This document shows, piece by piece, positions 6,442 to 51,300 of a stretch of 64,000 bases of DNA. A program made the position numbers and the translations under genes. The stretch is from Candidatus Omnitrophota bacterium (GTDB taxonomy: Bacteria > Omnitrophota > Omnitrophia > Omnitrophales > Aquincolibacteriaceae), in contig JAKJDL010000008.1 in the NCBI GenBank assembly GCA_022705945.1, positions 642 through 64,641 on the forward strand, read 5' to 3'. Numbering within the stretch: position 1 is the stretch's first letter; each line of letters opens with the position of its first letter. Below the pieces are notes generated by a model. It saw only the letters and a list, made by a program, of their open reading frames with translations, was not told where the DNA came from and made no database searches.

Positions 6442-6450
6442 GTTTTGTCC

Positions 6451-9500: not shown

Positions 9501-9504
9501 CTCG

Positions 9505-14770: not shown

Positions 14771-15163
14771 CTAAAAAAAGATCCCCATCGTCATTAGCGC
14801 AAGACCAATCGCGGCAGTCGACAGCATTACCGCTTTCATGGCGAGTGGTTCAACCATCAGGGCCAGGATCATTTCCCGGTATTTCTTCCAAAAAAATGCG
14901 CCGCCCGCAACCTTGAGGAGGGTCAGGGTCATAACAAAGGTCACGACGAAACCCTCGCTGCTCATCTCCATGAAAAACATGGCCCACGTCCCCAAAACCA
15001 GGGCTGTCCAAACGACATTGATCCAGAGGACGTATTGCGGCCGTTTTTCGGGCATGACCCTGGGTATCAGGTTTTTCCAGATACCCGGCCAGAACGCGGC
15101 CAAAAATCCTCCAACAACCATCCCCCCGCCCAAAATGATGCTTAAATATTCGAAGAACATCAT
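14771..15163 (-). CDS. Hypothetical small membrane protein
   Basis: 130-aa ORF with 4 hydrophobic helices. No motifs recognised. Confidence 0.4.
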   Translation of the reverse strand: MMFFEYLSIILGGGMVVGGFLAAFWPGIWKNLIPRVMPEKRPQYVLWINVVWTALVLGTWAMFFMEMSSEGFVVTFVMTLTLLKVAGGAFFWKKYREMILALMVEPLAMKAVMLSTAAIGLALMTMGIFF

Positions 15164-15218
15164 TTAATCCCTTTAAGGCCGCAAGACACAAAGTCACGCG
15201 CCGCATGAAAGTTTTCCG

Positions 15219-15413
15219 TCATGTGTCCTTATGGCCCGTGGCTCGCGATCGTCTGTTCCGTCCTTCCATGATGAGTGTCACCCCGACCGAAAAAAAAGAA
15301 AGGAATCCGGCGAGCGCGAAGATTGGCTGTCTCAATGTTCCCGCCCAAAACGCGACCGCGATCAGCACCATCCCCGGAAGAAACCATTTAAGCCAATAGT
15401 CCGTCTTCGTCAT
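15219..15413 (-). CDS. Hypothetical small membrane protein (about 64 aa, MTKTDYWLKWFLPG...)
   Basis: Two predicted TM helices immediately downstream of the 2359-aa gene. The longer ORF-track version overlaps the giant gene's end. Confidence 0.25.
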   Translation of the reverse strand: MTKTDYWLKWFLPGMVLIAVAFWAGTLRQPIFALAGFLSFFSVGVTLIMEGRNRRSRATGHKDT

Positions 15414-15496: not shown

Positions 15497-18400
15497 TTAA
15501 GCGGCGGAGGAGAGAGCGGAGTAAGCGGCATGAATTTCTGTCAGATAATTGCTGAGAAGCCGGCTTGTCGTGCGGACCTTCCCGAAAACCCTCGGCCCGC
15601 CGATCCAATCACGGACGGCGAAAAGGAGCGTGACGCCTTTTTGCGAGTGTTCGCGAGGCAGATCGTCATGGATAAGGTAGGATTCCTTCAGTTTCTCCGG
15701 CGCTACGGCATCCAGCCGGGCCGCAAATTCATCCAGGGTATCGACATTTTCCCGCGCATCAAAAACACATGTTCGTCCCGGATTTTTCAGAAGAAGTTCC
15801 CACGAGGCATTCTGGCGGGCTTCAACAATGATCCGGGATCTTCCCGCCGGCCTCCCCCGCGAACGACGATTCTGCGCCGCTTCCCTGATTAAACCGTTTT
15901 GAAACTCAAGCAATTTTTCTCGCGAAGCACCCGGCACCACAATTTGAATGAAAAGATCGTGAGATACCGCCAAATCCACAGCCTGTCTCACCGCGGGATG
16001 CGAAGGATCGATCATCTCCAAAATAACCGAGAGTTTATCCCCCGCATCCCGGGCTTTCACATCCTGAAAGATTATTTCCAGACCCCGGGTTGCGGCGTCG
16101 CTCTTATTCGCTGCGGAGCCCGATCCGACAAGCAGCGCGATCATTCTTTCGCGTCCCATTTCCAGAACTCTCGAATGACGGATCACTCCCCTCGCGGCAT
16201 TAACCGCTACTTGTCTTTCTGATTCGGCAAGCTCGGCACGCATTTGCTTTTCAGAACCTGTTTCACGGGTTTCGGAACGGGCGAGCTTTCCGTTCATCTT
16301 CAGCGGATCTCCCGTAATAGTTATTGAAAAATTACTTCCGAGGGAGCCCTTATCCGTGAGAAACCCGAGCTTTTCACCCCGAAGCAAATAGTTTTCATAA
16401 AAACGATCCGAGCGCTCCCAGTAGGAGGTCCAGACCAAATCCTTCTCGCCTTTGCGATACAACAAACTTAATACCGCGTCCATCAAAAAAACGCCCTTGC
16501 CCTTATCTCCGTCTTTTTTCGAGACAATTCGTTTGAGATTATTCAAAGAAAAAACCGTTGCCGGCCTTAGATGCGCAAATCCTCTAAGGTTATTCTTTTC
16601 GCCCAGCAACAACAGGGTCGTTGAAACGCCCCCGATGGCCCTGTCCCAATCCTCCTTGTTTCCAAAGGCTTCCCTGTCTTCAAAAGCGGCTCGCTCAAGT
16701 GCCGCGATCTCACCGGCAATATCGCTTTTTGCTTCCGCGGCCAACCTTATGCGGCCGAGGTCAACAATCGTTCCGAACACCGGATCGCTCGCGATAACAG
16801 ATTCGTCAGGGATTGCTAGTTCCGAAAGAGCACCGGCGGGCGGCCGGGGCACATCGGATCCATCCTTCCGAATCTCGCTTCGTTTGGCCGGACTTTCCGG
16901 AGAGGGGGCAAAAACCCACCGGAGCAGGGTGGTATTATCCGGCGCATATTCTCCTCCGGCAAATTCAATATAATCCTGCGCTCGCGCCGATCCCGAAGCG
17001 AGGTAGCGGATCCGTTCATCTTGTATCGTTTTAAGATCGCCGACGTGATAACCATGAATGCCATCGGTCGCAACAAGTATCTCTACCGAACTTTTCGCGC
17101 CTCTCAGATCCAGACGGGTGATGAAGGGTTTCGACACCAAAACCTTTCTGAAGCTTCTGTCACCGAAGGCTCGGGTCAGAGAAAAAAAATGGCGCGTGCG
17201 AAGGTTCATTAACCGCGGGACATTCGAGCTTTTAACTATTTTAAAACCGGGAGCAGAAAGCAGCGCGGGATCATCGCCGACGGTATGCTGAGGGAAAGAC
17301 AGAAACTCACGGTTGTCTTTCAGGACATAAACGGGAGAATCTCCGACAATCATCACGAAGAGGTCCTTTTTATTGTCGGGAACAAAAACCGCTGATAGCG
17401 TCGACCCGGAATCAAACCAAACCGTCAAAAGATGAAGTGTGCGGAATGTCCCGGAGAATGCCGCCCGGATATCACCTCCGCGCAGGAGAACCATAAATCT
17501 AAAAACGGGGGCGAGCAACAACTGAAGCAGTCTTGAGACGCGGGAGCCGTTATGCCCGTCCATAACGGCCATCAACCTCCCGGACGAAAGGAATCCGGGA
17601 ACCGCAACCCGGATCTCCTGATTTATAAAACGGTCCTCCTGATATTTTTTTAATCCCCGGGTTTGGGCCGACTGTGGAACTTCCCGTAACTCGGATCGCT
17701 TTATGACGGCTCCGTCGGGGTTGACCCAAAAGGTTTTGTAAATTTCTTCGTCCAAAAAATGATTGGATTTAACCCGAATGCGGCGGGCTCCGGTCTCATT
17801 ATCGGGCTTTCCGACGCTCACCGCGATCCCGATCATGTGGTCGTGATCATTATGAATTAGCACGGGACCAGAAAAACTTTCCCGAATCGTTTTCAAAAAA
17901 CCCTCTCTCGCCGATTCTCCCGCAGCGAAAAGATGCACTGCCGCTTTTTCTGTAATTCCTTTTTCCAAAAAAATTCTTTTGATGCTGGCAAGATACTCCT
18001 GAAGTTCCGGGTTCGAAATATAATTCCTGTCGCTGTTCCATGGCGAAATGTGCGCCGCACCCACCTTCCCATTTTCAAAAGCGAGAAGGAAAACGCATTG
18101 GCCTGACTGAAGTCCTCCGGAAGCAAACGGCTCATTATCATAAACCTGCAGCATATTCTCCCTGAGATAGCCCCTGATACCCTGGGGAAAGGGTATCCCC
18201 GCGGTGATGTCGTAAACAGGGTTTTCGGGATAATCATCCGGCGGTCTTTCACCCGTGATCATCTCTGTGATCAAATGTCCGAGAACCTTTACCGAGGGAT
18301 TCGTTTGGTAGCGAATAGCGCCGCAAATTTCAAGAAACATTACGGCCGAAAAACCGGTCAGGGCGGTCCGGTAAAGAATTTTCGGCAGCCGGGAAATCCG

Positions 18401-21400
18401 CGGCGAGATTATTTGTCTCAGTTCGCTTCGCCGCGGGTAATTCTTTCCTTCGGGCTCGAAAACAAAGCCCACCTGCCAGCCGCTGACACCGGAATCAAAA
18501 ACAGCTTGCCGTTCAAAAGGTTCCGTAAGCCGGAACCCATGCTTTTCAGCCTCATGAATAAAAAAATCCATCTGCTGAAGATCTTTGGCGGCGCGGATCC
18601 TTTCTTTTAAAAGCCATTCTCCCCTGCGAAAATTTTCTTCGAAGATCTTTAGAATTTCGGCGGTTTTTCCGGGATCCGGGGTGTCGCCGGAAGCGCTGAT
18701 GATAGTTTTGAAAATCTCCAGAACCCGCGAAAGAAAGGCAGCGGATAAAGGATCCTTTTCACCGAAAAACCATATTTCTGCCTGACGTTCGGCCGCCAGG
18801 ATTTTTAAGGTTCTGAGGCTTCTCAATATGCCGGAAAAGCCATTTGGGACATCCGGGGATTCAAGGAAAGCGTTGACGGCTTCAAGAAGACCGCTTTCCC
18901 TGATACGTTCGAATTGCTCCAGATCGATCTTGGCTTTTTCGATGATTCCCGAATCGGCGCGGTGCATGATAAAAAGAGCTCTTGCTCCTTTCTTCATGAC
19001 TCTGGTAAGTTTCAAGAGAACCTCCGCCTCGTTCATGTACTCCAGGGCGTATTGGCTGACCACCGCATCCAGATCTTTCGGGAGTTCCGTCAGGTCCAGA
19101 TCCTCACCCCGGGACCGGACAAAATGAACGCTCTCGGGAATATAATCCTTGCCGATATCCGCTCCGTCCAACGCCCAAAGCTCGAAGTTTTTCTTCGTCT
19201 GAAGCGCTTGCCGGGCAACAAAAAGATTTCCGGCACCGAGATCAAGGACCTTGGAGCCGACAGGAACTCCTTCAAAGAAGTTCTGCCAAAAAGCCCCATA
19301 GGCTTCCTGATGCCTTGCATCCAGAGAGGTTTCACGTTCTCCTGAAAAATGCTGTGTCCACCACAAAAAAGGTTTATCCAATGCGTGATTTTCGGTCTTG
19401 ATGGTCTGTGGAAGCGGAGACGGTTCCGGCTCACTTTGAACGGATCGAACCGCCTCCTCCGGACCGTGAGAAGAAGCAATCCGAAAATTGTTTAAAAAAT
19501 CCCGAACAAACGGGTTCGCCATCAGCTTTTCCATAGAAGAGGATATGTTGAAACTTTCCGTCAGAGACGCATCTGTGAGCTGCTTTTTCGTGAGAAAAAG
19601 AATCTCAGAGACCTCGCCTTGCCCTTTGATGCTCTTTTTCCATTTTTTAAGGCGTTTGATGAATTCAGAATAGTTTTTCCCCCGGGCATCGTCCAAAAAA
19701 ACCTTAAACTCTCTTATTGCCGAAATTTCACGGGGAGTCGGGATATAAACATAAAAACTGGTTCGTCGAGGCTCCCACTTTCTTCCGTCATCAAACATAC
19801 CACGCTCTCCGGCAAGAACGAGATTCCCTTCCGGCTGATAACCTTCACCCCAGATATGCGCCATCCCTGTCTCCTCGGAAATTTCCCTCAGGATTGTTGA
19901 ATCATAAGGGTTCTGGGCCCGGGAGTAAGTGCCGGGCTCTACCATACCTCCGAAAAATTTCATTTTTTGTTTGCCTTCGTTCTCGTGAGGTGAACGCATC
20001 AGAACAAATTCTTCGGTGTCCGGGATAAACAGAACTGCCTTGGCGTTGCGAAGCAAAACCTGTTTTCCCTCCTTCCGTTCCCTTTTAACCGAGCCGCTGA
20101 TAAATGTTCCATCCTCAAGAAAAACAAGATCGGCGACCCCGGCATCCAGGCTGCCGAGGATATGTTCTTCTCCGTTCGACATAACCTCTATCACTTCCAG
20201 ATGCCGGCCCGAAAGACGAAGCTCTCCCGAAAGAACTTTTTGAAGAAGCCGTGTCCGATGTTTCGGAAGGATCGGTGTTTTTGATGTCTTGCCAAGCACG
20301 CCAAGCTGATTGCGAAGCGTGAAATAATCGCGGGGGATTTTAAAAAGACGGGCAATTTTCTTTAACCATTTCCCGGGAGTTTTAAAAAAGAGAACAAGTC
20401 TTCCCCGGACGAATCTTTCTCTGAAATGACGAGGGAAAGAAAACTTGTCATTCGAAGCATTATCAAAGCCTCTCGCTTCGGCTCGGACGGAAACGGCTTC
20501 GCGAGATTCATAAATTGTTTTCGTGCCGCCGGGGACGGCAGAGGGCTCCGCTTGATCCCGATCCGCACCGGATTCTCCCGGGGATTTTTGGGAGGCGACC
20601 GATCTGATTTCATATCTGCCGGTTATTTTTTCCTTTTCATCGCGGAAATCTTCCGCACCCAAACCGGCCTTTCGGGCGTCCGCCGGGAGTTCTCCCCCTC
20701 CCCACGAAAAACCGTGGGCCGCCACCGCCGGGGACCTGAGGCGAGCGATCAACTCATGGTCAGGCACATCCCGGCTGCTGATTTTTTGAAGGGCTTCCCG
20801 AAATTTTTCGAAAAGATGATCAGCGGTAGCGGCGCCAAGGTCGTTTCGAAGATGGGCAAAACCTGCGCCGACGGAGGAGATTCGGATACTGGAAGGCATC
20901 GCCGTATTCCTGAAAGGCTTTTTCGGGGCTTCCTTGCTTTCCGAAAGAGGTTTGCATGTCCGTTCATTTTTAAACCCAAGCATGAGATCAAGATAAGGGC
21001 CCGGATTTTCCGGTTTTGTAATACGCGGTGAAACGCGAATATAAGAAACACCGTTTCTCCGAAATAATTCCGCAATTCCTCCGGAGTGGAATCCTCCCGT
21101 GACAAGAATGGCGTTGGATTCCTTGAGTAAGCGCATCTTCCTGAGCGTTTTATCAAATATTATTTGTTCACGTGCCGTAGCGGTTTTATAAAAACTGAGC
21201 GCGGCCGAAAAAGCCGCCTGAAGGCCGGGGGAAGAATGGAGGGCGGAAAATGGGGTTTTAACTTCACTGTTTCCCGCAGAATGCCATCCGCCATCCAGTT
21301 GCTGGTATTCCTCCCTCGTCATCTCCAGCGCAAAGAGTTTTTTCAGAAGTAGGTATTCCCTGTAGCGTTTTACAGTGTTTTGCTCCTCCCGGCTCGACGC

Positions 21401-22576
21401 GAGTTTATCGAGAATCATGCCGCGGAGCTTCGCGGTTTCTCTTAAAAGATCTTCCGCCTGAATCTCTGAGGAAAGAATCGAAATACCGGTCAACCGGGTC
21501 AAACAAGGGTATTCCTCGAACCGGAATCCCCTGGGCACGGCAACCGCGTAAAAAGTTTCGAGCTGGGTGCGGACATCAGAAACCCGGGAGGATGATGCCG
21601 GCCGCAAGACGGAGTCAAAGTCCCGAAAAAAATCGGTTAATTGTTTTTCTTCCAGCCAGGTTTTTAGTTTTTTTTCTTCGAATTGTTCGCTTCCATCCGT
21701 CCGATCGCCCTCTTTTTCAAGAGCTTTCAGCCTGAAAAACCGAACAAGCTGGGGCCAGTCGTATTGTTCCGCGGGATCAGAAAGATCGACTTTGAGGTAG
21801 CTGACGGCATCCTTCATCAATCTTTCCAAACCGGCAAAGCGCTGGTCCGCGATCTCTTCCCAAAAGGCCCACTCCTTAAAAAAAGCCCTGAGTTCAGGGT
21901 TAAATATCCGGGCAACTTCTCCCGAGATTTTAGTGCGAAGCTTTTTCAGAAAAAGATCCGCCTCCGCCTTGTTGGCGTAAACTTCCCTGAATTGTTCCAG
22001 GTTCTTTTTATAAAGAGCCAAATCTTCCGCCCCCCAAACAACAGGAAGGGTTTCACGGGCCGAACCTTGCTTCGCCGAAGCTGCCGCGGCAAGATCCAGC
22101 TCGACTCCTCCGGCAAGCCCCATGCGGTTAAGCTCGGCAAGAAACTTCATGTTAAGATCAGCGTCGTCAAAAAAATGAAGCGCTTCGGGATCCAGCTTCC
22201 GCCACGCGCCTTCCAGGAAGACCGTTTTCAAACCGTGGGTTCTTCGAAAATAACTTAAGAGTTTTTCAATATTAGCTTGCCCTTCCGGCTGGCCGTGAGC
22301 TTCCTCAATGTGGATAACAAACGGCACCGGGAAGGCCGCGGGAAGCTTTTGATGGAGAGGTTTAAAGCTCTCACGGATCATTCCGAAATCCGGAGGGACC
22401 AGGATTTCATCAATAAGGGAAGGGAGATTAACCTCTGCCCGCGGGCCTGAAACCTGGAGCGGAGCGGCAGCCTGCAAAACCGTGGTTGATGAAAAAATAA
22501 TCAGCATGGCAAAGCTGACCACGCGCAACCAAATATAAGCCGCCCCCTTGTTTATCAGCATAAACTTTTCTTCCAA
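15497..22576 (-). CDS. Giant secreted multidomain protein (2359 aa): signal peptide, shared N-domain, then Nudix, SAM-MTase, PP2C phosphatase and GNAT-like modules
   Basis: Uninterrupted 7.1-kb ORF with a signal peptide (MLINKGAAYIWLRVVSFAMLIIFSSTTVLQAAAP). The N-domain is homologous to those of the 7155-aa and 729-aa ORFs (HIEEAHGQ...NIEKLL; ILVTGGFHSGGIAELFRRNGVSYIRVSP). Nudix box GGMVEPG...ILREISEETG, MTase motif I VLDLGAGN, and PP2C motifs MDGHNGS/SGSTLS/VGDSPVY/LTRAFGD/VATDGI. Confidence 0.85.
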   Translation of the reverse strand: MEEKFMLINKGAAYIWLRVVSFAMLIIFSSTTVLQAAAPLQVSGPRAEVNLPSLIDEILVPPDFGMIRESFKPLHQKLPAAFPVPFVIHIEEAHGQPEGQANIEKLLSYFRRTHGLKTVFLEGAWRKLDPEALHFFDDADLNMKFLAELNRMGLAGGVELDLAAAASAKQGSARETLPVVWGAEDLALYKKNLEQFREVYANKAEADLFLKKLRTKISGEVARIFNPELRAFFKEWAFWEEIADQRFAGLERLMKDAVSYLKVDLSDPAEQYDWPQLVRFFRLKALEKEGDRTDGSEQFEEKKLKTWLEEKQLTDFFRDFDSVLRPASSSRVSDVRTQLETFYAVAVPRGFRFEEYPCLTRLTGISILSSEIQAEDLLRETAKLRGMILDKLASSREEQNTVKRYREYLLLKKLFALEMTREEYQQLDGGWHSAGNSEVKTPFSALHSSPGLQAAFSAALSFYKTATAREQIIFDKTLRKMRLLKESNAILVTGGFHSGGIAELFRRNGVSYIRVSPRITKPENPGPYLDLMLGFKNERTCKPLSESKEAPKKPFRNTAMPSSIRISSVGAGFAHLRNDLGAATADHLFEKFREALQKISSRDVPDHELIARLRSPAVAAHGFSWGGGELPADARKAGLGAEDFRDEKEKITGRYEIRSVASQKSPGESGADRDQAEPSAVPGGTKTIYESREAVSVRAEARGFDNASNDKFSFPRHFRERFVRGRLVLFFKTPGKWLKKIARLFKIPRDYFTLRNQLGVLGKTSKTPILPKHRTRLLQKVLSGELRLSGRHLEVIEVMSNGEEHILGSLDAGVADLVFLEDGTFISGSVKRERKEGKQVLLRNAKAVLFIPDTEEFVLMRSPHENEGKQKMKFFGGMVEPGTYSRAQNPYDSTILREISEETGMAHIWGEGYQPEGNLVLAGERGMFDDGRKWEPRRTSFYVYIPTPREISAIREFKVFLDDARGKNYSEFIKRLKKWKKSIKGQGEVSEILFLTKKQLTDASLTESFNISSSMEKLMANPFVRDFLNNFRIASSHGPEEAVRSVQSEPEPSPLPQTIKTENHALDKPFLWWTQHFSGERETSLDARHQEAYGAFWQNFFEGVPVGSKVLDLGAGNLFVARQALQTKKNFELWALDGADIGKDYIPESVHFVRSRGEDLDLTELPKDLDAVVSQYALEYMNEAEVLLKLTRVMKKGARALFIMHRADSGIIEKAKIDLEQFERIRESGLLEAVNAFLESPDVPNGFSGILRSLRTLKILAAERQAEIWFFGEKDPLSAAFLSRVLEIFKTIISASGDTPDPGKTAEILKIFEENFRRGEWLLKERIRAAKDLQQMDFFIHEAEKHGFRLTEPFERQAVFDSGVSGWQVGFVFEPEGKNYPRRSELRQIISPRISRLPKILYRTALTGFSAVMFLEICGAIRYQTNPSVKVLGHLITEMITGERPPDDYPENPVYDITAGIPFPQGIRGYLRENMLQVYDNEPFASGGLQSGQCVFLLAFENGKVGAAHISPWNSDRNYISNPELQEYLASIKRIFLEKGITEKAAVHLFAAGESAREGFLKTIRESFSGPVLIHNDHDHMIGIAVSVGKPDNETGARRIRVKSNHFLDEEIYKTFWVNPDGAVIKRSELREVPQSAQTRGLKKYQEDRFINQEIRVAVPGFLSSGRLMAVMDGHNGSRVSRLLQLLLAPVFRFMVLLRGGDIRAAFSGTFRTLHLLTVWFDSGSTLSAVFVPDNKKDLFVMIVGDSPVYVLKDNREFLSFPQHTVGDDPALLSAPGFKIVKSSNVPRLMNLRTRHFFSLTRAFGDRSFRKVLVSKPFITRLDLRGAKSSVEILVATDGIHGYHVGDLKTIQDERIRYLASGSARAQDYIEFAGGEYAPDNTTLLRWVFAPSPESPAKRSEIRKDGSDVPRPPAGALSELAIPDESVIASDPVFGTIVDLGRIRLAAEAKSDIAGEIAALERAAFEDREAFGNKEDWDRAIGGVSTTLLLLGEKNNLRGFAHLRPATVFSLNNLKRIVSKKDGDKGKGVFLMDAVLSLLYRKGEKDLVWTSYWERSDRFYENYLLRGEKLGFLTDKGSLGSNFSITITGDPLKMNGKLARSETRETGSEKQMRAELAESERQVAVNAARGVIRHSRVLEMGRERMIALLVGSGSAANKSDAATRGLEIIFQDVKARDAGDKLSVILEMIDPSHPAVRQAVDLAVSHDLFIQIVVPGASREKLLEFQNGLIREAAQNRRSRGRPAGRSRIIVEARQNASWELLLKNPGRTCVFDARENVDTLDEFAARLDAVAPEKLKESYLIHDDLPREHSQKGVTLLFAVRDWIGGPRVFGKVRTTSRLLSNYLTEIHAAYSALSSAA
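17027..17584 (-). other. PP2C-type Ser/Thr phosphatase module inside the 2359-aa protein
   Basis: Ordered PP2C motifs: AVMDGHNGSRV, DSGSTLSAVFV, VGDSPVYVL, LTRAFGD, ILVATDGIHGY. Confidence 0.7.
18932..19294 (-). other. Class-I SAM-dependent methyltransferase module inside the 2359-aa protein
   Basis: Motif I GSKVLDLGAGNLFVARQAL, then an acidic loop (WALDGAD) and motif IV-like VVSQYALEYM. Confidence 0.6.
19697..20044 (-). other. Nudix hydrolase module inside the 2359-aa protein
   Basis: GGMVEPGTYSRAQNPYDSTILREISEETGM matches the Nudix box GX5EX7REUXEEXGU. Confidence 0.7.
20987..22324 (-). other. Shared N-terminal domain (copy 2 of 3) within the 2359-aa protein
   Basis: Aligns by eye with aa 60-545 of the 7155-aa protein and aa 55-440 of the 729-aa protein. 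Conserved His motif plus the TGGFH[ST][DEG]G motif. Confidence 0.7.
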
Positions 22577-39304: not shown

Positions 39305-42300
39305 TTATGCCGATCGCGCCGTCGCGAGATACCCGGCCTGCATCCGCTCAACGAGCTGGCTCACGCCGGCCACGCGTAGAAAGCTCGCGAACTTTTGAGG
39401 CGTCATGACCGAAATGTCGGAAAGCCGTTTCACCAGTTCTTCGGGAAGCGTTTCGGCACCCCACACCATCGCCCTGAGATTCAATTCGCGGCCGCGGGCT
39501 TCCCTGCCCAGGAGTTTTCTCGCATCATCCAAGTGATCGGCCTGAAGAAGGAGGGGCCGGTTGGCTGGGGAGAGCTGGGCAAGAAAGCCGCGATCCGCTG
39601 AGCTGAGTTCGCTCTCGCTCGCGAGCACAATGATCCGCGTGCCGCTGAAGACTTTCTGGACCGCCAGAAGCGCCTTCTGATCGAACGCGAAAGATTTTGT
39701 AAGAATGAGGGCATCCATCCCTTCGACCGTCCTGAAAGCTATTTTGCGGGCATCGGCATAACGTTTTTCTTCCGGTTCCGTCACGGGAGCCGCAAGCACG
39801 TCATCCGGTGTCTCCGCGGCCTGCGCGACAGGAACCACCGCATTCACGATGAGCTTGACAGCGTTCGCGCCAAACGCATAAGGCACGAGCGACACGATGC
39901 CATCCGTAAGTTTTTCCGTGACGCCGAGGAAACCCCGCAGAGTTCCGCCGCCGAGACGGATATTCTCCGGAATGAACGTCTCCGGATCCGCAAAAACCAG
40001 CCGTGTCTGACCCGGCTCTGCCTGCGAGCGCGTCTCGGACCGGACAGGAACTGCGGATTTCTGCCGATACCGTGTTGGTTTGCCGGAAACCGGAACCGGG
40101 CGGTCAAAAGTCGCACTGTCGCCAAGGGCCATCTGAAAGTCTTTTTGAAATTTGTTCAAAGCTTTTTTCAGGCTCCCCCATGTGACCGGGTCTTTGGGAA
40201 GATTCTCCGGAATCCGGACTATCTCCTTGTAAAACCCGCGGAGGACTTTCACGGCGTCGGATTCGCGGCCATAGTTCAGAGAAGCCGACGTTACCATCGG
40301 AACAAAAACATCCCCGCACAACATGAAAAGATCTCGAAGCATGTTCGGGTCAAGCTTCCCAAACTCCTTCCATCCCGATTCCTCCATCTCAAGCAATTCA
40401 CGGTAGTCCGCACCGGCCAGCGCGCGCGGATAATCGCGCGGCAGTCGCGGATAATCCCTCGATGCTTCCTGATTCAGATAATAAAGTTTCCCGAAAAAGC
40501 CCCGGATCAGCCGACGGGACGGGTCATTCATCCCGGGATACCGGCTTTCCATTGTGTCGGTGAGAAGCCGGACAATAAAATGCACCCCCGGTGCGAGATT
40601 TTCCTCCGGCACCGGCTGGGAATAGAAGGAGCGGCCCCAAAAACCCTTTTCCGCAAGCGCTTTAAGATTCGCCTGGGAAATGTTGCCTTTGTTCTTCGCG
40701 TTTCTAGAGCCCCGTAAAACAAACGGCGCGGTTCGCCCCGGCAAGGCCTCGGAAATACTCTCTTCCAATCGGCCCCGCAAAGTTTCATCGACCGGGAGCG
40801 TCTCACCGGAAACAGTCGCGGAGGCGGAAACCTCTGCCGTTGCGGACGCTTCTTCCGGAACGATAGGGGCAGAAAGACCGACCGCCCCGCGATCAAGGAT
40901 CCTCAAAACAGAGCCCTCGAAATCCCAGAAACCGAGCGTCTTGCCCCAGGCAAGAAGGTGGACGGCCATGTCCTTCGGAATCCCGTAACGGGACGCATTC
41001 AGACGAAGGTCTTCCGCTATATCGGGAGGAACTTCTCCCTCCCAGGAGGAGACCCAACTCCGAACCGCTTTCGTGATGAACGGCTGTTGTTCCCGAATAT
41101 AATCCGCCCTGAAACTAACCGTGAGCAATGCGTTCCGGAACGGCACCCGGATTTGCGTATGCTCAAACCGGACACCGTTCTTCATTGTCAGAATAGACTG
41201 GGCATAAATCTGATTGAACATTTTCCTTGTTTGTTCGACAGATAGCTGTTCCCGGCCCGATCGCGCTTCCGCGCGTAGTGGGACAGCCGCAACGTTTGGC
41301 ACAACAATCGGCGTTTCGGCCACATCTGCTGCCGACGCGATAGCCGCATCCGATATCTCAACAGCCCCCGCACGAAGCTCCGAACGGTTCACTCCCACCG
41401 GCACCATCTGAAGGACCTGAAACCGCCATCCCGGCTGCCGGATCCCCGCCGGATCCTTACGTCTGACCACGGGTATCCCCGTTCTCCAGCCTTCTTTGAG
41501 AAGCGCGGAAAGCGTATGTTTCTTTTCGTAGACTTGCCCCAGAATAAGATCGCGAGCCTGATAGATCATCTCCGGCAAGAGACCCAGCGTTGAGATACTG
41601 CCGATCCCGAACCAAACCTTCCCCTCATCCTTATTGTAAGGAGTTTTCGCAAAATGGATCGGGATTACGACATGACGTTTTTGTTCGAGTCCGCCGGTTT
41701 CTTCTTTAAGCGTCCTGGAGATCACAATGGCCGTACCACGGCTGGCATCGTTGAAAAAAACCTCTCCTCTTTCAAAAAGATCTTTCACTGCCGGATCCCG
41801 CATGACGCTCTTGAGGGCCCGGTAAACCTCCCGGGATTCTTCCTCCGGCCCTTCCCAGTCTTTCATGTCTTCGAGAAGTTCCGGTACAAGCGCCGAGATA
41901 AAGGCCATCACGGGACGAACACCTTCCGCGCCGAAAAGCTCTATCGCCGTATCCCGTCCGATCCCGGAAACAGCCTGGAGATGCGTTTTGAGCTCTTCCG
42001 GTCCCCGGTGCTGGTAATAGGTCACCATTTTCTTCAGCCAATAGACCCTCGGCTTTTGCTGGCGCAATTGCTCTCCCGGTTCGCCGGAAACAAGCGCGCG
42101 AAGATCGTCCAGGATGAGAGATGCCAACTGCTTCCTTTTTTCTTCCGGTTTCATCTCGCCCGCGGCCCGGAGTTTCAGGATCTGAATATCGGGAGACGGC
42201 ACCCCGACCGGCAGAGTTCCCTGCGCGAGCATCCAGAAGGGATAAGGCTTCCGGTCCTCGCCCATCCCGTAGACCTCTCCCGTGATCGCATTGAGGACCT

Positions 42301-45300
42301 GATAGGTCATCGTCGCCGATTCCGGATCGGTCTGGCCCGTAAGCCATTCGAACTCTTTCTGCCCGTAAAATTGTCCCCAGGCCTTTGACTCGCCTCCGTC
42401 AATGCCGGGATATTTCGGTTCGCCCAGATTCAGCGCAACGATATACCTGTCCGCGCCTTCCTGAACGGCAAACCCCGCCAGGCTTTTATTCATGGAACCG
42501 AACCGCCGTCCGTTGGTTTCAAGATAGAAGAAGAGGTTCTGCCGAAACAGGTCGTTCTTGAAAAGCGATTCATACTCTTTGCTGCGGGAATGAATATACC
42601 CCTTCAGGACATTCCCCGATAACGTGACAACAAAGCTGTCCAGGAGCCGGAGCGCCGCAAGGTTGGCTTTCACTTTTTCCAGAAGATCCGTAGCAGCCTC
42701 CGCCCGGGACTTCAGGCGGAGCATTTCCTTATAAAGATCCGGTATCTCTCTCTCGAATCCCTCGAGATAACGGAATATCCTGGCGAAGATATCCTCCTTG
42801 CCGGCGTGATACGCCACCGAACGGTAACCGTCCGCGGCATGAGTTCGTATTCGGCGCGCGCTTTCAACAAAGGCGAGCGGTCCCGGGGGAGCGATCTCAA
42901 GCGCGTTGGGAGATTCATTTCTCCAGACGAATCCGGTATCATCGCCCGCTCTTTGGGAAAGAAACCTCAGAGCGCTTTCGGGAGAAAGCCCCGGCTTTTC
43001 CAGCAGGGCTTTTTCCTCTCCGGATTTTACGACTGTCCTCTGCCAAAGTTTTATGTGCGCCCGCGCCTGGCTTTTTTCCATATCCGCGACGGGAGAGGAC
43101 CGGAGAGCTTTCCATATGAGATCCCGACGCGACGAAGATAACCGGTAGCGTTCCCGGAGTTCGGCAAGGGCACCGGCCAGAGAATCCGCGGACGGCGGAC
43201 GCGCGTTCACGGTCTGAATCTTTCCGTCCACAACGGTATTGAGAACGAACTTGCCGTCGCCCGCCGCGGCGTATTCCACCAGAAAACCATTGGTGATCTT
43301 CCAGGCGCCGGCGTGAAGTTTTCCGGCAAGCTCCTCATAGGTAACATGCTCTTTGAAGATATTCACTTCGCGGCCGGTCGCAGATTCTGTGATTGTGAAC
43401 AGTTCCGGCTCCGCGCCGCCCCAAACGCCGATCAGGGCCGCGCCATTCGGAAGCCCCTTCATCATGCTGGTGGCCGAAGCTTCCAGGATTTCATAAGAAA
43501 GCATTACGCTCGCGGAGATCCCCTGGAAAATAACCGGCGCGACTTCAATGTTGTAGTTCTCGATCGTCGCAAATTTATCTTCAAGGCCAAGCTCCCGCAC
43601 CAAATCCTGGATCTCCAGAAACAAGCCGTGCGCATCTTTGCCGAACTCGCGCCCGCCTATGACCGCCCGGGCAGCGTTCTTCTTGTACCATTCCAGCCTT
43701 GCCGGGTCAGCCTTGAGCGCCCGGAGAACCTCGATCCATTTGTCCGGTCCCTTGTAGGAAACCTGGCGTCGCACGTTGGAAACGATCGGAGTCTTGAGAA
43801 ATTCCCGGCTAAGCGCCTGAACCCTGCGATCCGCCAAAAGCGCGGCCCATTCGTTTTCATTTTCAAGCGCGCCCCGGATACGGCGGTTGAGATCCGCCAG
43901 AAGCCGGTCGCCATAAACCTCCGTGAGCCCGAACTCTTCCCGATACGCTTTCATTGCCTGATCGAACCATGCGGGACGGTTTTGACTTTCTTTAAGCCAC
44001 AGCATCAACCGACCGGTCAAAAAGGCTTTAATGACCTCTGTTCTCTCCTTAAATTCACTCAGAAGAAGTGCCTGGGCAGGTTCGCTGAGCTTCGCAAAGA
44101 GGACCCTGTCATCCGATGCGGGGTCCATCCCGAGCTTCTTTTTATAGCTGTCGGTCAATCCCCGAAGGAGCGGTGACTGCCACTGTTCGAGCAGGACCCC
44201 GTTCGTGCTCCGGAGCCCGTCCTCGTTGTAGCTGTCCACCACATCGGCATAGCCGGGCATCACGCCGCCCGTGACGGCAGGCGTGTGTTCATACAAGGCG
44301 ACCCCGGTAACAAGGTCAAATGTCATCCCCGCCGCATCCGTGACACTGATCTTTCCGTTCCGGACGATATAGGGCCGCAGTGCCCTAGAATATCCCAGCA
44401 CCTCCAGAGAAGCCTCTTCAGGCTGATAGATCGTCGGCGTGAAGACAGAGTGGTTTATGTGATGGTGAAGCGCGTCCGGCAGAAGAGGCGTCGGCAAGCT
44501 GACAAAAACCTCATTGTCCACAAAGAGAATCTTCTTCTTGGCCACTCCTTGCTCCTGAAGTTTCAACGTCAGAAGCTCGGTAACTTTCCGGTAAACCCCC
44601 ATTTGCAGGTCGCGCCAAAGATTGGGGGCTCCATAAGGAGCATCGGGATAAACCTCGTCGAAGATCTGGACCTTCTTTCCATAATCATCAATGTAAAAAG
44701 CCTCGATATAAAAATTCGGCATACCCCCGACCGAAGTCTCGGTCGGATAAACCTTGACCCTGATCTCGCGGTCAACCGCTTCCCGGGCTTGCTGGAGTCG
44801 TTTCCTGTATAAAGCATCGCCGGTCCGGCTGATCCACTCGTCGGCTTTCGTGCGAAACTCATCGCCGGCATCCAGAGAGAAACTCAGCCGAAATCCCGGA
44901 TCTTCGGTCAGAACTTCGCGAAGATAATCCCCCAGCGTCTTTTTGCCGCTCACCACCTCTTCCGGAAGGTCTTTGGCGTAAGCCTGCCCCTTGATCTCGT
45001 CATAGATCACGTTCACGGCAAAGACATCTATGTTCTTTTTTTTCGGAGCTCCAAAATTCTTTTGCCAGGAGGGGAAAAGATCGTGCATCAGGGCTCCTAG
45101 GCCTCCGGTCATCGTAGTGGCCGCGACCAGTCCCGCGATCTCTTCGCCGAACTTCGCTTTAAGCTTTTCCAAAATATCACGCGACAACCCGGCCTCAAGC
45201 TGGCGGGAAATGACAGTATAATTCCCAAGTTCCGGGGCATTCTTCGTCGCCCAGGAGCGCATCTCGGAGCGGGAAGATCTTGAAAAAGCGACGGCGAGTA

Positions 45301-48300
45301 CAGCGGCTCCGCCGACAGGTCCGGAAAAATCGGCGAATCCCATCACCGGTGAGGCATGTTTTTTCATCAAGCCGTCCCGCCTGCTCGGCGCGTATCCCTT
45401 GTCAATCCCCGCTTCGCGGACCTCCGACCGGCCCAGGGCCGATAGGGCGCTTTCGATACGCACTAACCGGGGTTCTTCTTTCCGGGCCTTTTCAAGCTGT
45501 TCCAGAAGATAGCGCCGGGTCTCTTCATCGATCTTGGCGAGCGATCTTAAATGCTTTGTGAGTAACGCCCTGACCAAAGACTCTCTCCGTGAGGACCGGA
45601 TGGCCCGAACAACATGGTCGACCGCTTCCCTGGCAGTATAGCCGGCTTTCATCAGCTCATCCGCGGGATCTTTTTGCTTCCGTGCCCTGTGGATCGCGGA
45701 AGCCACTTCCAGGGTCCGGATCTCGGGGACCGGCTCCTCGCCAAGGACATTCATCCATCCGCTCATGTACCGGTTGCGCGCCACATCGATCCATCGCGCG
45801 TCCTGCGTCAACAGCTGATATTGCACTTCCCGCCACGCGGGACGGTCATACCGGTAAACGTCATACATTTTCATTAGCGAACTCAACCAGTAAACGGGGT
45901 TAAAAACCTTGAACCCTTCCGTCAGTTCCCCGCGGGTGACCAGCTTGTCCGCCAGTCCATCCACGTCCCGGAGATGACGCATGATCCCGTTGGCCGCAGC
46001 CTCTTTATCGCTAAGACCGCACGGTTCAAAGGTAGACGGCATATCGAACAGGTCCGAACCGCCATAGATCAAATCGTACATTTCCTCGGTCGTTTTGATG
46101 AAACTCGGCCGGAAATAAACCCGTCCGGAGAAAAGGGACGCAATTTCATTAAATCCTTTTTCGTAGCTGGAGCCCTTTTCCACGCTCCCGGCCACCACAA
46201 ACCGCACATCCGGATGAAGAATGAGCATCACGTCCAGGGCTCTCAAAGCCTCCATCCCGTGCTCTTTGGCAAATTCCCTGAGCGTCCGGGCCTGGGCTTC
46301 CGTCAGCTGGATCCGCACATCCGGATCCGCAAAAAGGTTCCGCATCGGAACCGCCTGCTCGTTGATATTGCCGGACAAACGGAACGGAGGATGCTGCGGG
46401 TTGAGACGCAGACCGTTTGGATCCCTGACCGTCCAGACTTCGGCAAGGAGCAGGTGATGTCCCTTTTGCATGTCGATCCGGTGGAGCATGGAATGCACAA
46501 AAACACGGTCCGGGTCCCCCGCCAGACCTGTCTTCTCCAGCAAAACGCGCCGGGCGACCGGCTGAAGATAATCCAGGACCACTTTCGCGAGCATCCGGCG
46601 ATCACGCTCGTGACCGATCTCCATGAAACTTTTGACAAATCTCGAGGGGTTCCTGACCACCTTCCCAAGATATTCCCGGAACCCTTCCATGCCCGGCTCC
46701 CAGTCCGGGTTTTTCAGATCTGATCGCATTTTTTCAAGCACTCGGGCATCATGAAACCAGCGGTGCAGGAAATCCCTCTGCTGGGTAACAACCTCGATAC
46801 CGTTCGGAATTCCGGTATATCGCCCAAGGCTGTCCTTGTATTGAAGCTCACCGGTCAATCCTCCGAATTCGTTCCAGTAATCATTGTCCAGGCTACGGTC
46901 GTGATACCCTTTCGATACCGTTACGGCCAGGTCCGATGTCTTGAGCGCCGTGAAGCTCGGATTGATGATTCCCCAAATCCCCGGAGCGAAAAGGACATCC
47001 CAGTCTTCCTGTGCGCTTAGTCCGAGGTCATGATAGACCATGGCATTACGCCGGCGTGTTTGTTCGTCGGTAAGGTGTTTTGTCTTCCAATCGTTGCTGA
47101 TATAAACCCAACCCTGATAATCCCGGTGAAGGTTATGGAATATCGAGGTAACGCGGGTTCGGCGAAAGTGCGGGTCCCGCTTCAGGTCTTTCAGCGCGGG
47201 AGCAATGCGGTCCCGGCCTTCCAGGTAAGCTTTCAGGTAGGCCGACGGCCAGTCATTGGTCTGGATGACATCAGGGTGGATGTTCGCCTCGCGAAGAGCA
47301 AGAAGAGCTCCGAGCGAAAGCGCCCTGGCGAATCGAAGCTTGAAGTTGTCCGCCCCGTGATACCCGCTGGGGTCTCCGGACCATCTGCCTCGCAGTCTCG
47401 GAAAAACCGTGTCGTTCATCAGCCCAAGGACCCGGACCCCCCTGATCTTGGTCTTGAAAATCATCAGGTCCTCGTACTGAACGGTTCCGCCGTTATCATA
47501 CGGAACCGGCGCCACGCGCCCTGTGTCTCTGAACCCGTATTGCTTAATCACATCCGCTTTGTTGTGGGAATAGATCGGGGCAACCAGCGTGACATTTACG
47601 CCAAGATGGGCCAACGTCAACGCCAGCTCCGAAACGGCCTTGGCCAGCCCGCCCGTTCCTTCGGTCCACAGGCTTTCGGGACTCACGAGCACCACTTCGC
47701 CGACGGAAGAACTCTGAAGAACCTTGATGGCATCTTCGCTCATTGCGGGATCGCTTTCCTGGTCTTCGACCGCCATACTGACGAGGAACTCACGGATCTC
47801 GTCCTTAAGCTCCGGTTTCAGAACCATAACGTCCCGGAAAACCATCGCGAGGTTCCCCAGATCCAGCCGGCCGCCCGAGGCGCGGATAATCCCGGAAAAT
47901 AACCGGAAAAGCGTCTTGAACTCACGATAACCGCTTTCAAACGCCCTGACGATCTCCCCGGAGACAAAACTATACCTGAACCTGTCCTCAACGCCGTAGC
48001 GGCGGTAGCGCTGAAGCGAATCCTTCAGAAGTTCACGGTAACCGGGCTCACCGGCAAGAGGTAATTTTCCCGAGATTTTCCGAAGGTGATAGATTTTTAT
48101 TTTACCGGACCGGAGAGGATCACGCGGGCCCAGCCCCAAATGCCGCATGGCATTCCCGGTCAGGATCAAAGGTTCCCCCGGATTGCGTACATTTACAGAA
48201 ATGTCCTCACTGTCATGGACCTTGATGAACTCAAACACATCTTCGGGCTGAACTAACAGGATTTTTTCTTTTTCCCCGAAAACCCGTTCCGGAATAAAGT

Positions 48301-51300
48301 TGATGTCGGCGGCAGACGGAGCGCCGGTATGTTCCAGCATGAGAAGAAACCCGTCGCCGCCAAGCTGAAGGGCATGAGCGCGCACCCGGCTATGTCCGAC
48401 ATCCAACGGAATGATGCCGCTTCCGGCTTCAACATCAAGCCGGCGGGCGGCCATCCGGTCGACCGTTTCTTGAAGCTCTTCCTCCGTCACTCCCCCCCGA
48501 ACTTCCGAGCGAAGGGAAAGACTTTCATCTTTTGCACCGACCCGTAATTCGGTACGCATGCCAGAGTTTGCGGCATCTCGATCCACGGGGTGGGGGGCGG
48601 CCGGATCGCGGGACATAAGCGGCAGGCTCCCGGCATAAACATCCCCCGTACCAAAATCCACGGTCAAAAGATCCCCTTCACGTAACTGCCCTCCCCCGAG
48701 CATCACGCTTCCGTCCCGGAGGACGTTAAGACCCTGCACGCTGACCACGGTGGGAATTTTGTCGTAGTTGGCTACCACCGCGGCATGCGAACTCAAACCT
48801 CCCTGGGAGGTTAAAAGCATGAGTCTTTTCCCGACGGTCCCGAGTATGCGATTGGCATTAATAAGGTCCGGAGTATCTTCGGGCGTCGGGAAAGCGCTGA
48901 CAAGAATCAAGGCTTCCACCCCTTTCTGCCTGGCCACGCGTTCCACCAAATCCCCCCGGAGTATTTCGGAGGATTTCAGCGCAACCATCCCCCGCAAGGC
49001 CCCCTCGTTCCCGTAGGCGACATTGCCGTGTCCTTCCGGAATCTGAGAAATTCTTTCGCGGTCCAAAAGCGGAAAGTTTTCCGTATTCCCGACCCTGTGA
49101 TCACTGCCCGTTTGGAGGAGGTACAGTTTTTTGTTTTCAACGGTGAACTCCACCATTTGGGGAACGCCAAAATATTCGGCCAGAAGATTGGTGCCCGCTT
49201 TTAACTTCTCATAAATCTCGGGGTTTATGCGCTGTAAGGATCCGATCGGCTCTGTTTTGCCGCGCCCCTGCATGAGATTCATGCCTCCCGAAGAAAAAAC
49301 AACGTCCCCGCCAAAGGACAGTTCACCCGAGTGAGGATCGTGAGACGTGGCAACCCCCGCGCCGGAATGTTCGTTCAGATCCCCAAAAACATAGGCCTGC
49401 ACGATCACAGGTGTTGACCATGCGTCTGAAATGTTTTTTTCTTTCCGATAGCGACTCGCCTTGGAGTTTCCCCAAGATTCGAAAGTCTTCTCGATCAAAA
49501 AATAAAGTTGTTGGTTCGGGTCCCGGTATAAAGTTTCAAACCTCTCTTTCACACCGTAACGCTCCATGATCCCATAGGCTTCCTGCACCATTTCAGAAAG
49601 ATCCGACTCCCGAAGCTCTCTCCATTTCAGGTTTTTACCATCCCCAAGGAACCGGTTCATCAAAGCTTCAAATTCGTCGTGAGGAACACCCAAACTCGTG
49701 GCCATTGATTCCACAAAACCGAGAAAGGCCCTGTAACCGGATTGAACTCCTCTTGTTTCCAGAACATACTCCAGAATTTCGGGAGTGAACCCCACCGCCA
49801 CGGCCGTTTCAAAAATCCCCGGCATGATAAAGACGGCTCCGGACCGGACCGCGAGAAAAAGAGGTTCGCCATCCTCTTTAAACAGAGGGGTCGGGGCCAT
49901 GCCATAGCGAACGGGGTGCCCCTTCTTCTTGGACCATTCTTCTTCGAGTCTTCGAAGGTGTTCTTGAACGGCTACCTGGAACTGCTCCGGAAATTGTTCG
50001 TAAAAACGATACCGCCCGACATAGGAGGGGATCACAAAAGCGCTCGGAACCGGAAGGCCCAAGGCGTCCATTTCCCCCAAATAGCATCCTTTTCCGCCAT
50101 AGGTCTTTCGTTTGTGCGGCTGGTGGTTAAACCGGGGATCACCGATGTGAGCGATCTCCCCGAACGGTTCCTTTGCTTTTTGCTTGATAAAGTTCCGGTG
50201 CGCCTCGGGGTTGACCGGTTTATCGGGATTCTGGTTCGCCTGGAGCTGCGCTTTGTTTTTAAGTTGTTCGAGAAGATTAATGGCGGCCACCGAGAAGAAT
50301 TTTTCTTTGCGGATCAGGGCAATGGCACGCTCATGCCTCTCATGGTCTTCGCCGTAAAGGGATTTCCCGGCCAAATGATATTGAGAAATCCATCGGGAAA
50401 ACTCCTGCTGGATTCCTCTTTGCATGACATTGATCACATCCAGAAGTTGGCTATAACTCAGCTCCGAATCATTCAGAAGGTCGGACCACTGAGCCGTGTA
50501 CCTTGTGATGAATCCGCTGTCAAACAGTTCATCGGTCAGTTCCGCCATCAGCATCAGCGCATCCCGAAAATCGGCATCGGTTTCTCCCCATTCTTGCAGA
50601 AAAGCTCCGAGCGACAAATTCAACATTTGTCCCAGAGAACGGTCAATCACATAGAGCTCATGCACAAGCCGAGGGTCATTCGCGTTTTCCAGAATTTCTG
50701 TGACCGTCCGCCGCGCGGCAATGATTTGCCTTGTCTTCTCAAAAGGAGATTGCTCATAAGCATCCACAACAAGCTGCAACGCCTTTTCCAGGGAGGGAAG
50801 CTCCTTTACGGTTTGGGTCTGAAGCCAACGTCCGAAAAGGTCGGGTCTGGAAGTCCCTTCAAAAAGGGCGACCAGAGCCTGCTCCAATTTTTTTACATTA
50901 GAATAAATTTCGTTCTCATTCCGTTCGTCATTCGTCATGGAAGCCAGCTCTGCCCGAAGCTCTCGTTCCCGATCGTGTAAAAAGATCCACTCCCGCTGGA
51001 TCGCGCTCTCGTCGCCTGTGCTCAAAAACTCCAGAAAAGCCTGGACTTTGGGGAGCACTTCGTAAGAGAAAGAAGGCCCGTGGAGGGTTTCGCGGATTTT
51101 CATTGAGAACTGGGTGTGGATCAATAATCGCTCGTCCAGGTCTTCTGCTATTCCCCATAGCACGCTATAGAGGTTAAAAAAGGTATCTGCTGCCGCCGAG
51201 TAGGGCAACGAAAGCACAAGCTCTTTAACAGGGCGTCTCAGGGGTTTTGGGGTTTTGGCAAGAAGCTGCGCAGCAAGGTGTCCGGCCTGTTCGGCAAGAT

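Follow-up and report, generated by a model that had tools for sequence, protein, structure and literature searches.

The stretch of DNA analyzed here, referred to throughout as the window, comprises 64,000 nt of contig JAKJDL010000008.1 from a Candidatus Omnitrophota bacterium and carries two very long genes, the products of which have been named A (2,354 aa), the protein under study, and B (7,155 aa). A sequence-only reading had described A as a giant paralog of B that places a toolkit of signalling and modification enzymes behind a signal peptide, and had proposed that it is processed at junction motifs and possibly injected as a set of effectors. Protein A is encoded by a single unbroken open reading frame (ORF) on the minus strand, which runs from a TTG at 22576 to 15497 (2359 codons from the TTG). 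An ATG at 22561, five codons inside this frame, is preceded by GGAAG/AAGGA-like purine runs resembling a ribosome-binding site and was chosen by the public gene calls; it is likely the start of A, giving 2,354 aa, and residue numbering begins at the methionine which it encodes. The protein is deposited as OQA57947.1 ("Protein phosphatase 2C", Candidatus Omnitrophica bacterium ADurb.Bin277), its source being a metagenome-assembled genome (MAG) from an anaerobic digester, and an identical protein is present on the NCBI contig MWBP01000003.1 (GCA_002069035.1) and in two independent, unrelated Logan assemblies, so that it is found on four contigs overall. The recovery of the identical protein from independent assemblies means that the ORF is real and intact and is no assembly artefact. 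A belongs to a very large family of modular giant proteins, so far unnamed, which come mainly from Omnitrophota and in some cases from Elusimicrobiota. The family is defined by a universally shared head domain at the N-terminus, apparently of the TIKI superfamily, and we propose that its chains may be cut at a recurrent junction motif, R[SA]ExR. The features of A that carry this proposal are the following.

15497..22561, minus strand: whole gene A, 2,354 aa, with the stop codon at 15497-15499
22460..22561, minus strand: N-terminal signal-type or type II anchor helix, residues 1-34 (hydropathy; helix 7-32 in the AlphaFold2 (AF2) model)
20972..22420, minus strand: conserved N-domain (head domain), residues ~48-530, with a predicted alpha/beta core of the TIKI/EreA/ChaN/TraB superfamily
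22295-22303, minus strand: candidate catalytic E87-x-H89, motif hIQDAH (position 87 is D/E across the family)
22211-22213, minus strand: candidate catalytic E117, motif lEG
21170-21172, minus strand: candidate catalytic R464, a conserved Arg
21086-21088, minus strand: candidate catalytic H492, in TGGFH (VTGGFH)
20471..20485, minus strand: junction motif RAEAR, residues 693-697, the first motif, in the linker after the N-domain
18416..18430, minus strand: junction motif RSELR, residues 1378-1382
17684..17698, minus strand: junction motif RSELR, residues 1622-1626
16868..16882, minus strand: junction motif RSEIR, residues 1894-1898, after the PP2C module
16265..16279, minus strand: junction motif RSETR, residues 2095-2099, before the C-terminal domain

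The AF2 model of the N-domain (pLDDT 84) has an alpha/beta core with a parallel beta-sheet flanked by helices; this core is made up of about residues 60-180 and 480-530 of A, which are split by a helical insert of ~300 residues. Sequence searches with the N-domain against Pfam, NCBIfam and the Protein Data Bank (PDB) produced no match, and when the model was compared with structures by Foldseek the TIKI/EreA/ChaN/TraB superfamily led among the non-coiled-coil matches, though below significance. The catalytic set of this superfamily has been described as Glu-x-His, Glu and His together with a conserved Arg, and the spacing from His to Glu is 28 both in RRSP (His3902/Glu3930) and in Bcr135 (His85/Glu113) (PMC6254334). 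The same 28 residues separate H89 from E117 in A, and the distance from R464 to H492 is 28 as against 29 in RRSP. Residues H89, E117, R464, G489, G490 and H492 make up the handful of invariant positions in an alignment of 26 copies and are kept in 176-179 of 179 sequences. From the fold model and these sequence positions the head domain appears to form a new and very divergent branch of the TIKI superfamily, in which the candidate active-site set is intact, and is thus a putative hydrolase.

The head domain is the only module common to all family members; it had been overlooked by the sequence-only reading, as had the domain at the C-terminus. The 40 database homologues recovered in the first round (1,400-4,100 aa, from Omnitrophota and Elusimicrobiota MAGs) share with A only the N-terminal ~530 residues, and the enzyme domains that follow differ, with PGM, GDH, NDK, transaldolase, PFK, ClpC, Lon, YvcK, DUF89, LOG and others forming the cargo of the relatives. 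The two proteins of the window can be aligned over the first ~560 residues only, at 28% identity; the term paralog therefore fits this part, and beyond it nothing is alignable. When 1.84 billion cluster representatives were searched with a profile of the head domain, 10,362 matched at E<=1e-3, of which 7,315 passed E<=1e-30; each of the 150 matches listed has the domain beginning within the first ~50 residues, and the proteins reach 7,818 aa. A pattern scan built on a five-sequence alignment found at least 426 copies of the head domain in GTDB species genomes, several per genome, where those record titles that name a phylum say Omnitrophota and the others say just "uncultured bacterium". No match was obtained when GTDB genomes were scanned with the whole protein for close relatives of A, and a word-indexed homologue search with the cargo of A (residues 698-2354) returned only a fragment of A itself; the relatives of the individual modules described below were found by phmmer inside the family protein set.

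Head-only ORFs were seen in two short contigs, L004 and L005, in both cases directly upstream of a cargo ORF. In L004 the head ORF (721-2469) ends in a stop and is overlapped by a cargo ORF in another frame (2441-10469), which encodes more than 2,676 aa with 11 R[SA]ExR motifs; this break may be a frameshift, a programmed shift or a true split. In L005, which belongs to a clade without the motif, the head ORF (1274-2887) is followed by a 100-nt spacer and then by a PGM-like ORF (2988-4430) lacking a leader, and sister proteins of this pair carry head::PGM fusions. The occurrence of the head as a separate ORF in some contigs means that a covalent link to the cargo is not essential.

The motif R[SA]ExR occurs five times in A (four RSE[LIT]R and one RAEAR) as against 0.19 copies expected from 20,000 shuffles (Poisson P about 2e-6). 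Across 42 family proteins RSExR was counted 86 times against about 3 expected, a ~30-fold enrichment, and RAExR 39 times; the variants KSExK, KSExR and RSExK gave 0-1 occurrences in the same proteins, and both Arg residues are therefore required. At least three copies follow the head domain in 69 of 177 proteins, and one protein has as many as 20 where 0.14 would be expected. The 72 motif-rich proteins contain a single copy inside their head domains and about 580 behind them. The first copy lies at a median of 80 residues behind the head domain (200 residues or less in 90% of motif-bearing members), and successive copies are spaced by a domain-sized median of 234 residues (interquartile range 113-445). 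Disorder-promoting residues are enriched and hydrophobic ones depleted in the flanks (P about 1e-49), and in A and B the motifs never break a Pfam match; the PGI of B (2166-2657), for instance, sits between motifs at 2091 and 2666. The motif also keeps its position beside homologous modules of proteins which are merely 25-47% identical: it follows the PP2C module in A (RSEIR) and in the family proteins P0001 (RSEKR) and P0074 (RAEAR), it comes after the GNAT-like module of A, P0080 and P0083, and it precedes the C-terminal domain in six of nine proteins. The motifs common to A and B, which had been noted from the sequence as RSE[LIT]R, have thus been borne out at module boundaries and across the whole family, and the remaining 26 ORFs of the window, 10,041 aa in total, contain zero copies of R[SA]ExR.

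Among the motif copies the Arg, Ser and Glu codons vary synonymously, so that selection acts on the peptide and not on the nucleotides; a nucleotide-level signal was ruled out on this ground. A furin-like R-x-x-R reading was rejected, since the two Arg are spaced i and i+4, and phosphorylation of the Ser was judged an unlikely purpose of the motif, since Ala replaces Ser in about a third of the copies. Sister clades have other recurrent junction strings, namely [AQS]SLG, SGARLA and ARMA, as well as variants biased towards RAEVR or RxELR. The string [AG][AQS]SLG, often followed by x-E, was seen in P0006, P0008, P0010, P0024, P0031 and others, along with SGARLA, ARMA and SEGR/SESR. The motif class largely tracks the tree of the head domains, with nearest-neighbour concordance in 121 of 142 cases. 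No junction motif was found in the "HIQDAHCNYEAQ" clade or in the members from Elusimicrobiota. Candidate junction peptides that could serve as cleavage substrates are KRSELRE and AVIKRSELREVPQ.

In the leader of A a hydrophobic core at residues ~14-32 is preceded by K5 and R13 and followed by ...VLQAAAP, and hydropathy gave no convincing later transmembrane block. The helix is present with either start codon, TTG or ATG, and the signal-type N-terminus proposed from the sequence did not disappear under the alternative start. In the family a hydrophobic helix starting at about residue 11 is found in 148 of 170 full-length members, with a mean charge of +3.25 in the N-flank and -0.48 in the C-flank and with the N-flank the more positive in 147 of the 148; this is the charge orientation of a Sec signal peptide or of a type II anchor, to judge from the sequences. 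Many members have no hydrophobic segment besides the leader. The n- and h-regions are present in A, and the Pro in VLQAAAP disfavours one possible cleavage site, so that for this leader an uncleaved anchor and a predicted signal peptide that is cleaved appear equally possible. It should be noted that a topological paradox results, in that a secretion-type leader precedes enzymes which need SAM (S-adenosylmethionine), acetyl-CoA, ATP or sugar phosphates. The combination of cytoplasm-type enzymes with a secretion signal, first remarked upon in A, is real and general, being found family-wide, and the same topological prediction has been made for the largest Omnitrophota proteins (10.64898/2026.06.07.730766).

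Behind the head domain and its linker A is composed of the following modules.

19817..20038, minus strand: Nudix-like segment, Pfam match at residues 842-915 within a module of roughly 770-1030, with the core REISEETGM
18431..19456, minus strand: putative class-I SAM-methyltransferase module, residues 1036-1377, with motif I VLDLGAGNL
17699..18415, minus strand: module of unknown function, residues 1383-1621, 239 aa
16883..17683, minus strand: PP2C/PPM phosphatase module, residues 1627-1893 (Pfam, PDB profile, metal-binding Asp motifs)
16280..16867, minus strand: GNAT-like module, residues 1899-2094, assigned transitively
15500..16264, minus strand: conserved C-terminal alpha/beta domain, residues 2100-2354

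The phosphatase is the firmest of the four enzyme assignments that had been made from the sequence. PF00481 matches it with 30.8 bits in the whole protein and 37.9 bits in the isolated module (E 2e-9), above the gathering score of 20.3, and a three-sequence profile of the PP2C modules of A, P0001 and P0074 matches 43 PP2C chains in the PDB (best E 4.6e-9). The metal-binding motifs QEDRF, MDGHNG, VGDS, FGD, TDG and PDNTT are all kept and invariant across these three homologous modules, and the module of A is 47% identical to that of P0001. The assignment of the methyltransferase is supported by profile matches to PDB class-I structures (YcgJ, E 3.4e-4; arsenite methyltransferase, E 7.8e-4) and by the glycine-rich motif I, VLDLGAGNL, identified by eye, with the Methyltransf_11 match staying below gathering (18.5 against 21.2 bits). 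For the Nudix-like module the assignment is weak: the REUxEExGU core of the Nudix box is intact (REISEETGM), but PF00293 reaches 18.4 bits against a gathering score of 21.1 (E 0.002-0.012) and covers profile positions 7-67 only, the upstream Gx5Ex7 part of the box is non-canonical and displaced by an insertion, and a search against the PDB gave no match. Between genes A and B, at 31858-32403 on the minus strand, there is also a canonical Nudix hydrolase encoded on its own (Pfam E 5e-10), and the module in A is therefore not the sole Nudix of the neighbourhood. The GNAT-like assignment is likewise weak. The module has no Pfam, hidden Markov model or PDB match of its own and is related to acetyltransferases through its homologue in P0083 (E 6e-11), which matches Acetyltransf_9 with 24.1 bits (E 4e-5), a little short of the 25 needed for gathering; in hhalign the module aligns with the GNAT region of P0003, at a non-significant E of 0.53. 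For residues 1383-1621 no homologues were found apart from fragments of A itself.

The C-terminal domain, conserved in the subclade to which A belongs, takes up the last ~225 residues of A. Ten family proteins carry it, and in nine of these, a fragment of A being counted among them, it ends 15-20 residues before the stop. Its structural model is mediocre and matches generic Rossmann-like folds only. Chains that carry this domain end in ...[SQK]AA (...ALSSAA in A; the relatives are P0001, P0002, P0046, P0051, P0074, P0080, P0092 and P0114), which is reminiscent of the recognition tails of ssrA-type or tail-specific proteolysis.

The second family member of the window has the following features.

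39305..60772, minus strand: gene B, 7,155 aa, OQA57928.1, deposited as "Glucose-6-phosphate isomerase"
59084-60772, minus strand: leader and N-domain of B, residues 1-563
58148-58714, minus strand: S8 subtilase of B, residues 687-875, right behind the head domain
52802-54277, minus strand: PGI of B, residues 2166-2657, 740 bits

In B a RAETR motif at residue 611 and the subtilase are followed by about 7-8 hydrophobic helices at 911-1137, and after this transmembrane block come PGI, a PPDK_N/PEP-utilizer dikinase, a GT5 starch synthase with GT1, and a phosphorylase, a set of enzymes that looks like a glycogen toolkit. There are 15 RSExR and two RAExR motifs among these enzyme modules. The S8 subtilase was considered as a general cis-acting processing enzyme and rejected, as it occurs in just two of 179 family proteins.

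The genes around A are ordinary chromosomal housekeeping genes. They comprise a Mrp/group-4-hydrogenase-like cluster and genes for a dicarboxylate symporter, superoxide dismutase, dihydrofolate reductase, thymidylate synthase, an ABC transporter, gamma-glutamyltranspeptidase, a split transketolase, an M24 peptidase and menaquinone biosynthesis. The genes surrounding A in the window include no locus for secretion or toxins, and the M24 aminopeptidase-type gene is the only protease gene near A. Promoter and terminator scans inside the ORF of A gave no meaningful excess over shuffles. Two small ORFs without a Pfam match lie directly downstream of A at about 14771-15413 on the minus strand, and further ORFs without a match are located at 37611-38210 and 3207-3938 on the minus strand and at 61262-63451 on the plus strand, the last of which encodes 729 aa and adjoins the start of gene B. 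At 8001-14000 of the window the plus strand has a strongly positive AT skew (+0.23 to +0.26). Polytopic membrane subunits (Proton_antipo_M, Oxidored_q2) are encoded on the minus strand of the same region, and the skew is probably an effect of codon and amino-acid composition.

A conserved head, a motif of two Arg placed behind that head and at the module boundaries, alternative motifs in other lineages and heads that are separable from the cargo together form the pattern of polyprotein processing. In the mechanism which we propose the leader would direct the chain to the membrane or across it, the head would come out first and stay tethered, and cuts at the R[SA]ExR junctions would then release the enzymes from one another. 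The head alone is universal, and two members of its superfamily, Tiki and RRSP, are endopeptidases with sequence specificity; it is on these grounds that the TIKI-like head domain of the chain itself is proposed as the most likely cutting enzyme, in cis or on sister chains. As it emerges first and is tethered by the leader, it could act while the rest of the chain is still emerging. The predicted products of A would be the head domain, a Nudix-like/methyltransferase piece, the 239-aa module, the PP2C phosphatase, the GNAT-like piece and the C-terminal domain, and they may act in the periplasm or at the cell surface, in a target cell, or after all in the cytoplasm. We infer that cleavage occurs, which protease performs it and where the products act, and we give the reading as a whole, a polyprotein cut at its junctions with involvement of the head domain, a probability of about 50%. 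Cleavage by some protease is somewhat likelier than this joint reading, and a lower probability attaches to the head domain as the enzyme responsible.

Several observations weigh against the proposal. About 50 of 142 long members have no recurrent junction motif and yet keep the catalytic residues of the head. The best Foldseek match of the N-domain model in the PDB had an E of 0.2, which is not significant, and the fold does not in itself imply peptidase activity, esterases and a haem-binding protein being among the members of the superfamily. No columns of the head domain were found to co-vary with the motif class beyond the phylogenetic signal, such as acidic residues that would match the two Arg. 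The same motif is used in A and B despite heads that are only 28% identical, which would also fit a shared protease acting in trans. In A no junction motif separates the Nudix-like from the methyltransferase module. Lastly, it is difficult to see why enzymes dependent on SAM, acetyl-CoA or ATP should be exported. A fuller version of the proposal, which we put forward tentatively as an unlikely scheme, is one of bacterial polyprotein delivery, in which a Sec-targeted, membrane-tethered TIKI-like endopeptidase would cut its own cargo at lineage-specific motifs and release enzymes of cytoplasmic type in fixed stoichiometry outside the cytoplasm. They could be released into a periplasm or compartment of enlarged size, at the cell surface or into a prey cell, the set of A being regulatory and that of B serving glycogen metabolism.

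The cleavage step is shared by a reading which differs in the site of action, namely that A is an effector cocktail like the MARTX toxins, secreted, delivered to a prey or host cell (e.g., a methanogen) and processed there, so that PP2C, Nudix, methyltransferase and acetyltransferase would rewire the target and the glycogen enzymes of B would mobilize its reserves. The Sec-type leader found throughout the family would suit such a role, the cytoplasm of a target would supply the cofactors which the enzymes need, Omnitrophota have been proposed to be predators or episymbionts, peptides of a giant ORF were reported to be 3-fold higher in attached Velamenicoccus cells (PMC10066038), and the MAG came from an anaerobic digester. 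Nevertheless A was found to contain no module for translocation, pore formation or secretion systems, and no toxin, RTX-repeat or C80 cysteine-protease module; its neighbours are housekeeping genes with no secretion locus among them, some members come from Elusimicrobiota, and the relatives carry bulk housekeeping enzymes (PGI at 740 bits, PGM, NDK, GDH, ClpC and Lon). The injection of effectors as envisaged by the sequence-only reading is thus not supported, and we regard the effector scenario as improbable. Doubtful to a similar degree is the view that the chain stays uncut as a membrane-tethered multi-enzyme scaffold, in which R[SA]ExR would be a docking element (for a partner or for the head), a source of flexibility or a regulatory linker element. 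The location of the motif in hydrophilic linkers would fit any short linear motif, a large clade without it has the same architecture, and both preprints on giant proteins of Omnitrophota (see below) treat the chains as single polypeptides; set against this, two invariant Arg from which Lys is excluded, alternative motifs in other lineages and a copy right behind the head in 90% of cases are the pattern of polyprotein cleavage, and the head is a separate ORF upstream of the cargo in some contigs.

Processing may also be the work of a separate protease acting in trans, either a subtilase like that of B or another enzyme, in which case the head would serve as an esterase or in peptide trimming, anchoring or membrane quality control. 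This would explain how A and B share a motif with such divergent heads and how P0006, a member of the G type, comes to nest among heads of the R type; B has an apparently intact S8 domain right behind its head, and non-peptidases are included in the superfamily. The rarity of S8, the restriction of nearby protease genes to the M24 aminopeptidase-type gene, and the position of the head as the only universal partner, with strictly conserved catalytic positions, argue the other way and leave a trans-acting protease with a rather low probability. That the whole pattern is an artefact, be it of chimeric assembly, of fused pseudogenes or of a nucleotide-level motif for recoding or RNA processing, is extremely improbable. 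Giant ORFs in MAGs do deserve suspicion, and L004 shows a frame break between head and cargo, but four contigs, one from an NCBI MAG and others from two unrelated Logan runs, encode the identical 2,354-aa product, thousands of relatives have the same architecture, the catalytic motifs are intact, and the Arg, Ser and Glu codons of the motif vary freely.

Giant proteins of Omnitrophota have been reported in two preprints, as "Archaeovorins" (West-Roberts et al., 2023; 10.1101/2023.11.21.568195) and as "multi-enzyme metabolic clusters" (Nielsen and Lui, 2026; 10.64898/2026.06.07.730766). The first speculates on cleavage by C39 or S8 domains and states that the cleavage points are unknown, and the second does not mention cleavage; a signal peptide or transmembrane helices were present in 94% of the proteins. 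A and B resemble them in the phylum, in the many unrelated enzyme domains joined on one polypeptide and in the leader or transmembrane helices, and the domain sets match as well, a methyltransferase/GNAT/Nudix/HD-type "module 1" and a starch synthase/GT1/PGM/PGI/dikinase "module 2" having been described. The proteins of the preprints are at least 10,000 or more than 30,000 aa long, and A and B, at 2,354 and 7,155 aa, fall below both thresholds. Neither preprint reports a common N-terminal domain, a TIKI-like fold or a junction motif, and no earlier account turned up when the literature on Omnitrophota was searched for polyproteins, Tiki or TraB. A is therefore a smaller representative of a known but unexplained class, to which the TIKI-like head, the junction motif and the C-terminal domain are new.

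The closest functional analogues of A may be the MARTX toxins and the viral polyproteins. The MARTX toxins have a C80 cysteine protease activated by inositol hexakisphosphate (InsP6), glycine-rich repeats at the N- and C-termini and type I secretion. They are very long secreted chains with several enzymes that act in the cytoplasm and are released by an in-chain protease cutting the linkers, as the cleavage predicted here would do, and their effector RRSP has the same superfamily fold as that predicted for the head domain. A search of A for the C80 protease, the RtxA glycine-rich repeats and the type I secretion signal gave no Pfam or NCBIfam match at E<=1; unlike MARTX, A has its candidate protease at the N-terminus behind a Sec-type leader, and its junctions are a defined five-residue motif. 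In viral polyproteins such as those of picornaviruses and potyviruses one ORF gives many products, each junction has a short, lineage-specific motif and the protease is part of the chain. A differs from these in its location on a cellular chromosome among housekeeping genes, in its metabolic or regulatory cargo and in the unrelated fold of its candidate protease, and its processing is predicted only. With the known members of the TIKI superfamily (Tiki1/2, RRSP, TraB/PrgY, erythromycin esterases, ChaN and HopBA1) the head domain would share the core fold and the Glu-x-His/Glu/Arg/His set with matching spacing. Tiki, TraB/PrgY and ChaN are membrane-associated or extracytoplasmic. The head is unlike the known members in its helical insert of ~300 residues and in being always fused or adjacent to a long modular cargo.

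The observation made from the sequence was largely right, its effector interpretation is unproven, and the finding for the family as a whole is the broader one. The N-terminal TIKI-like domain, for which Pfam and NCBIfam hold no model, provides a marker for the family, and its profile finds more than 10,000 protein clusters. If R[SA]ExR is the cutting site, it offers for the first time a definite starting point for asking whether giant bacterial proteins are cut, and at which positions; R[SA]ExR, [AQS]SLG and the other motifs of the sister clades are candidate cleavage sites that can be searched for in existing metaproteomes, and the head domain is a candidate protease with named candidate catalytic residues. 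Annotation based on KEGG Orthology (KO) finds PGI in 67 of 176 complete Omnitrophota genomes (10.64898/2026.06.07.730766). Thresholds set for whole proteins may miss enzymes inside giant ORFs such as B, and the apparent gaps in glycolysis are possibly artefacts of annotation, which annotating these proteins module by module may alter. Should the delivery scheme be true, part of the "missing" central metabolism of Omnitrophota would be hidden in giant ORFs and deployed through them. The pairing of a secretion-type leader with cofactor-dependent cytoplasmic enzymes is in any case an unsolved problem of cell biology, in a phylum that is suspected of predation.

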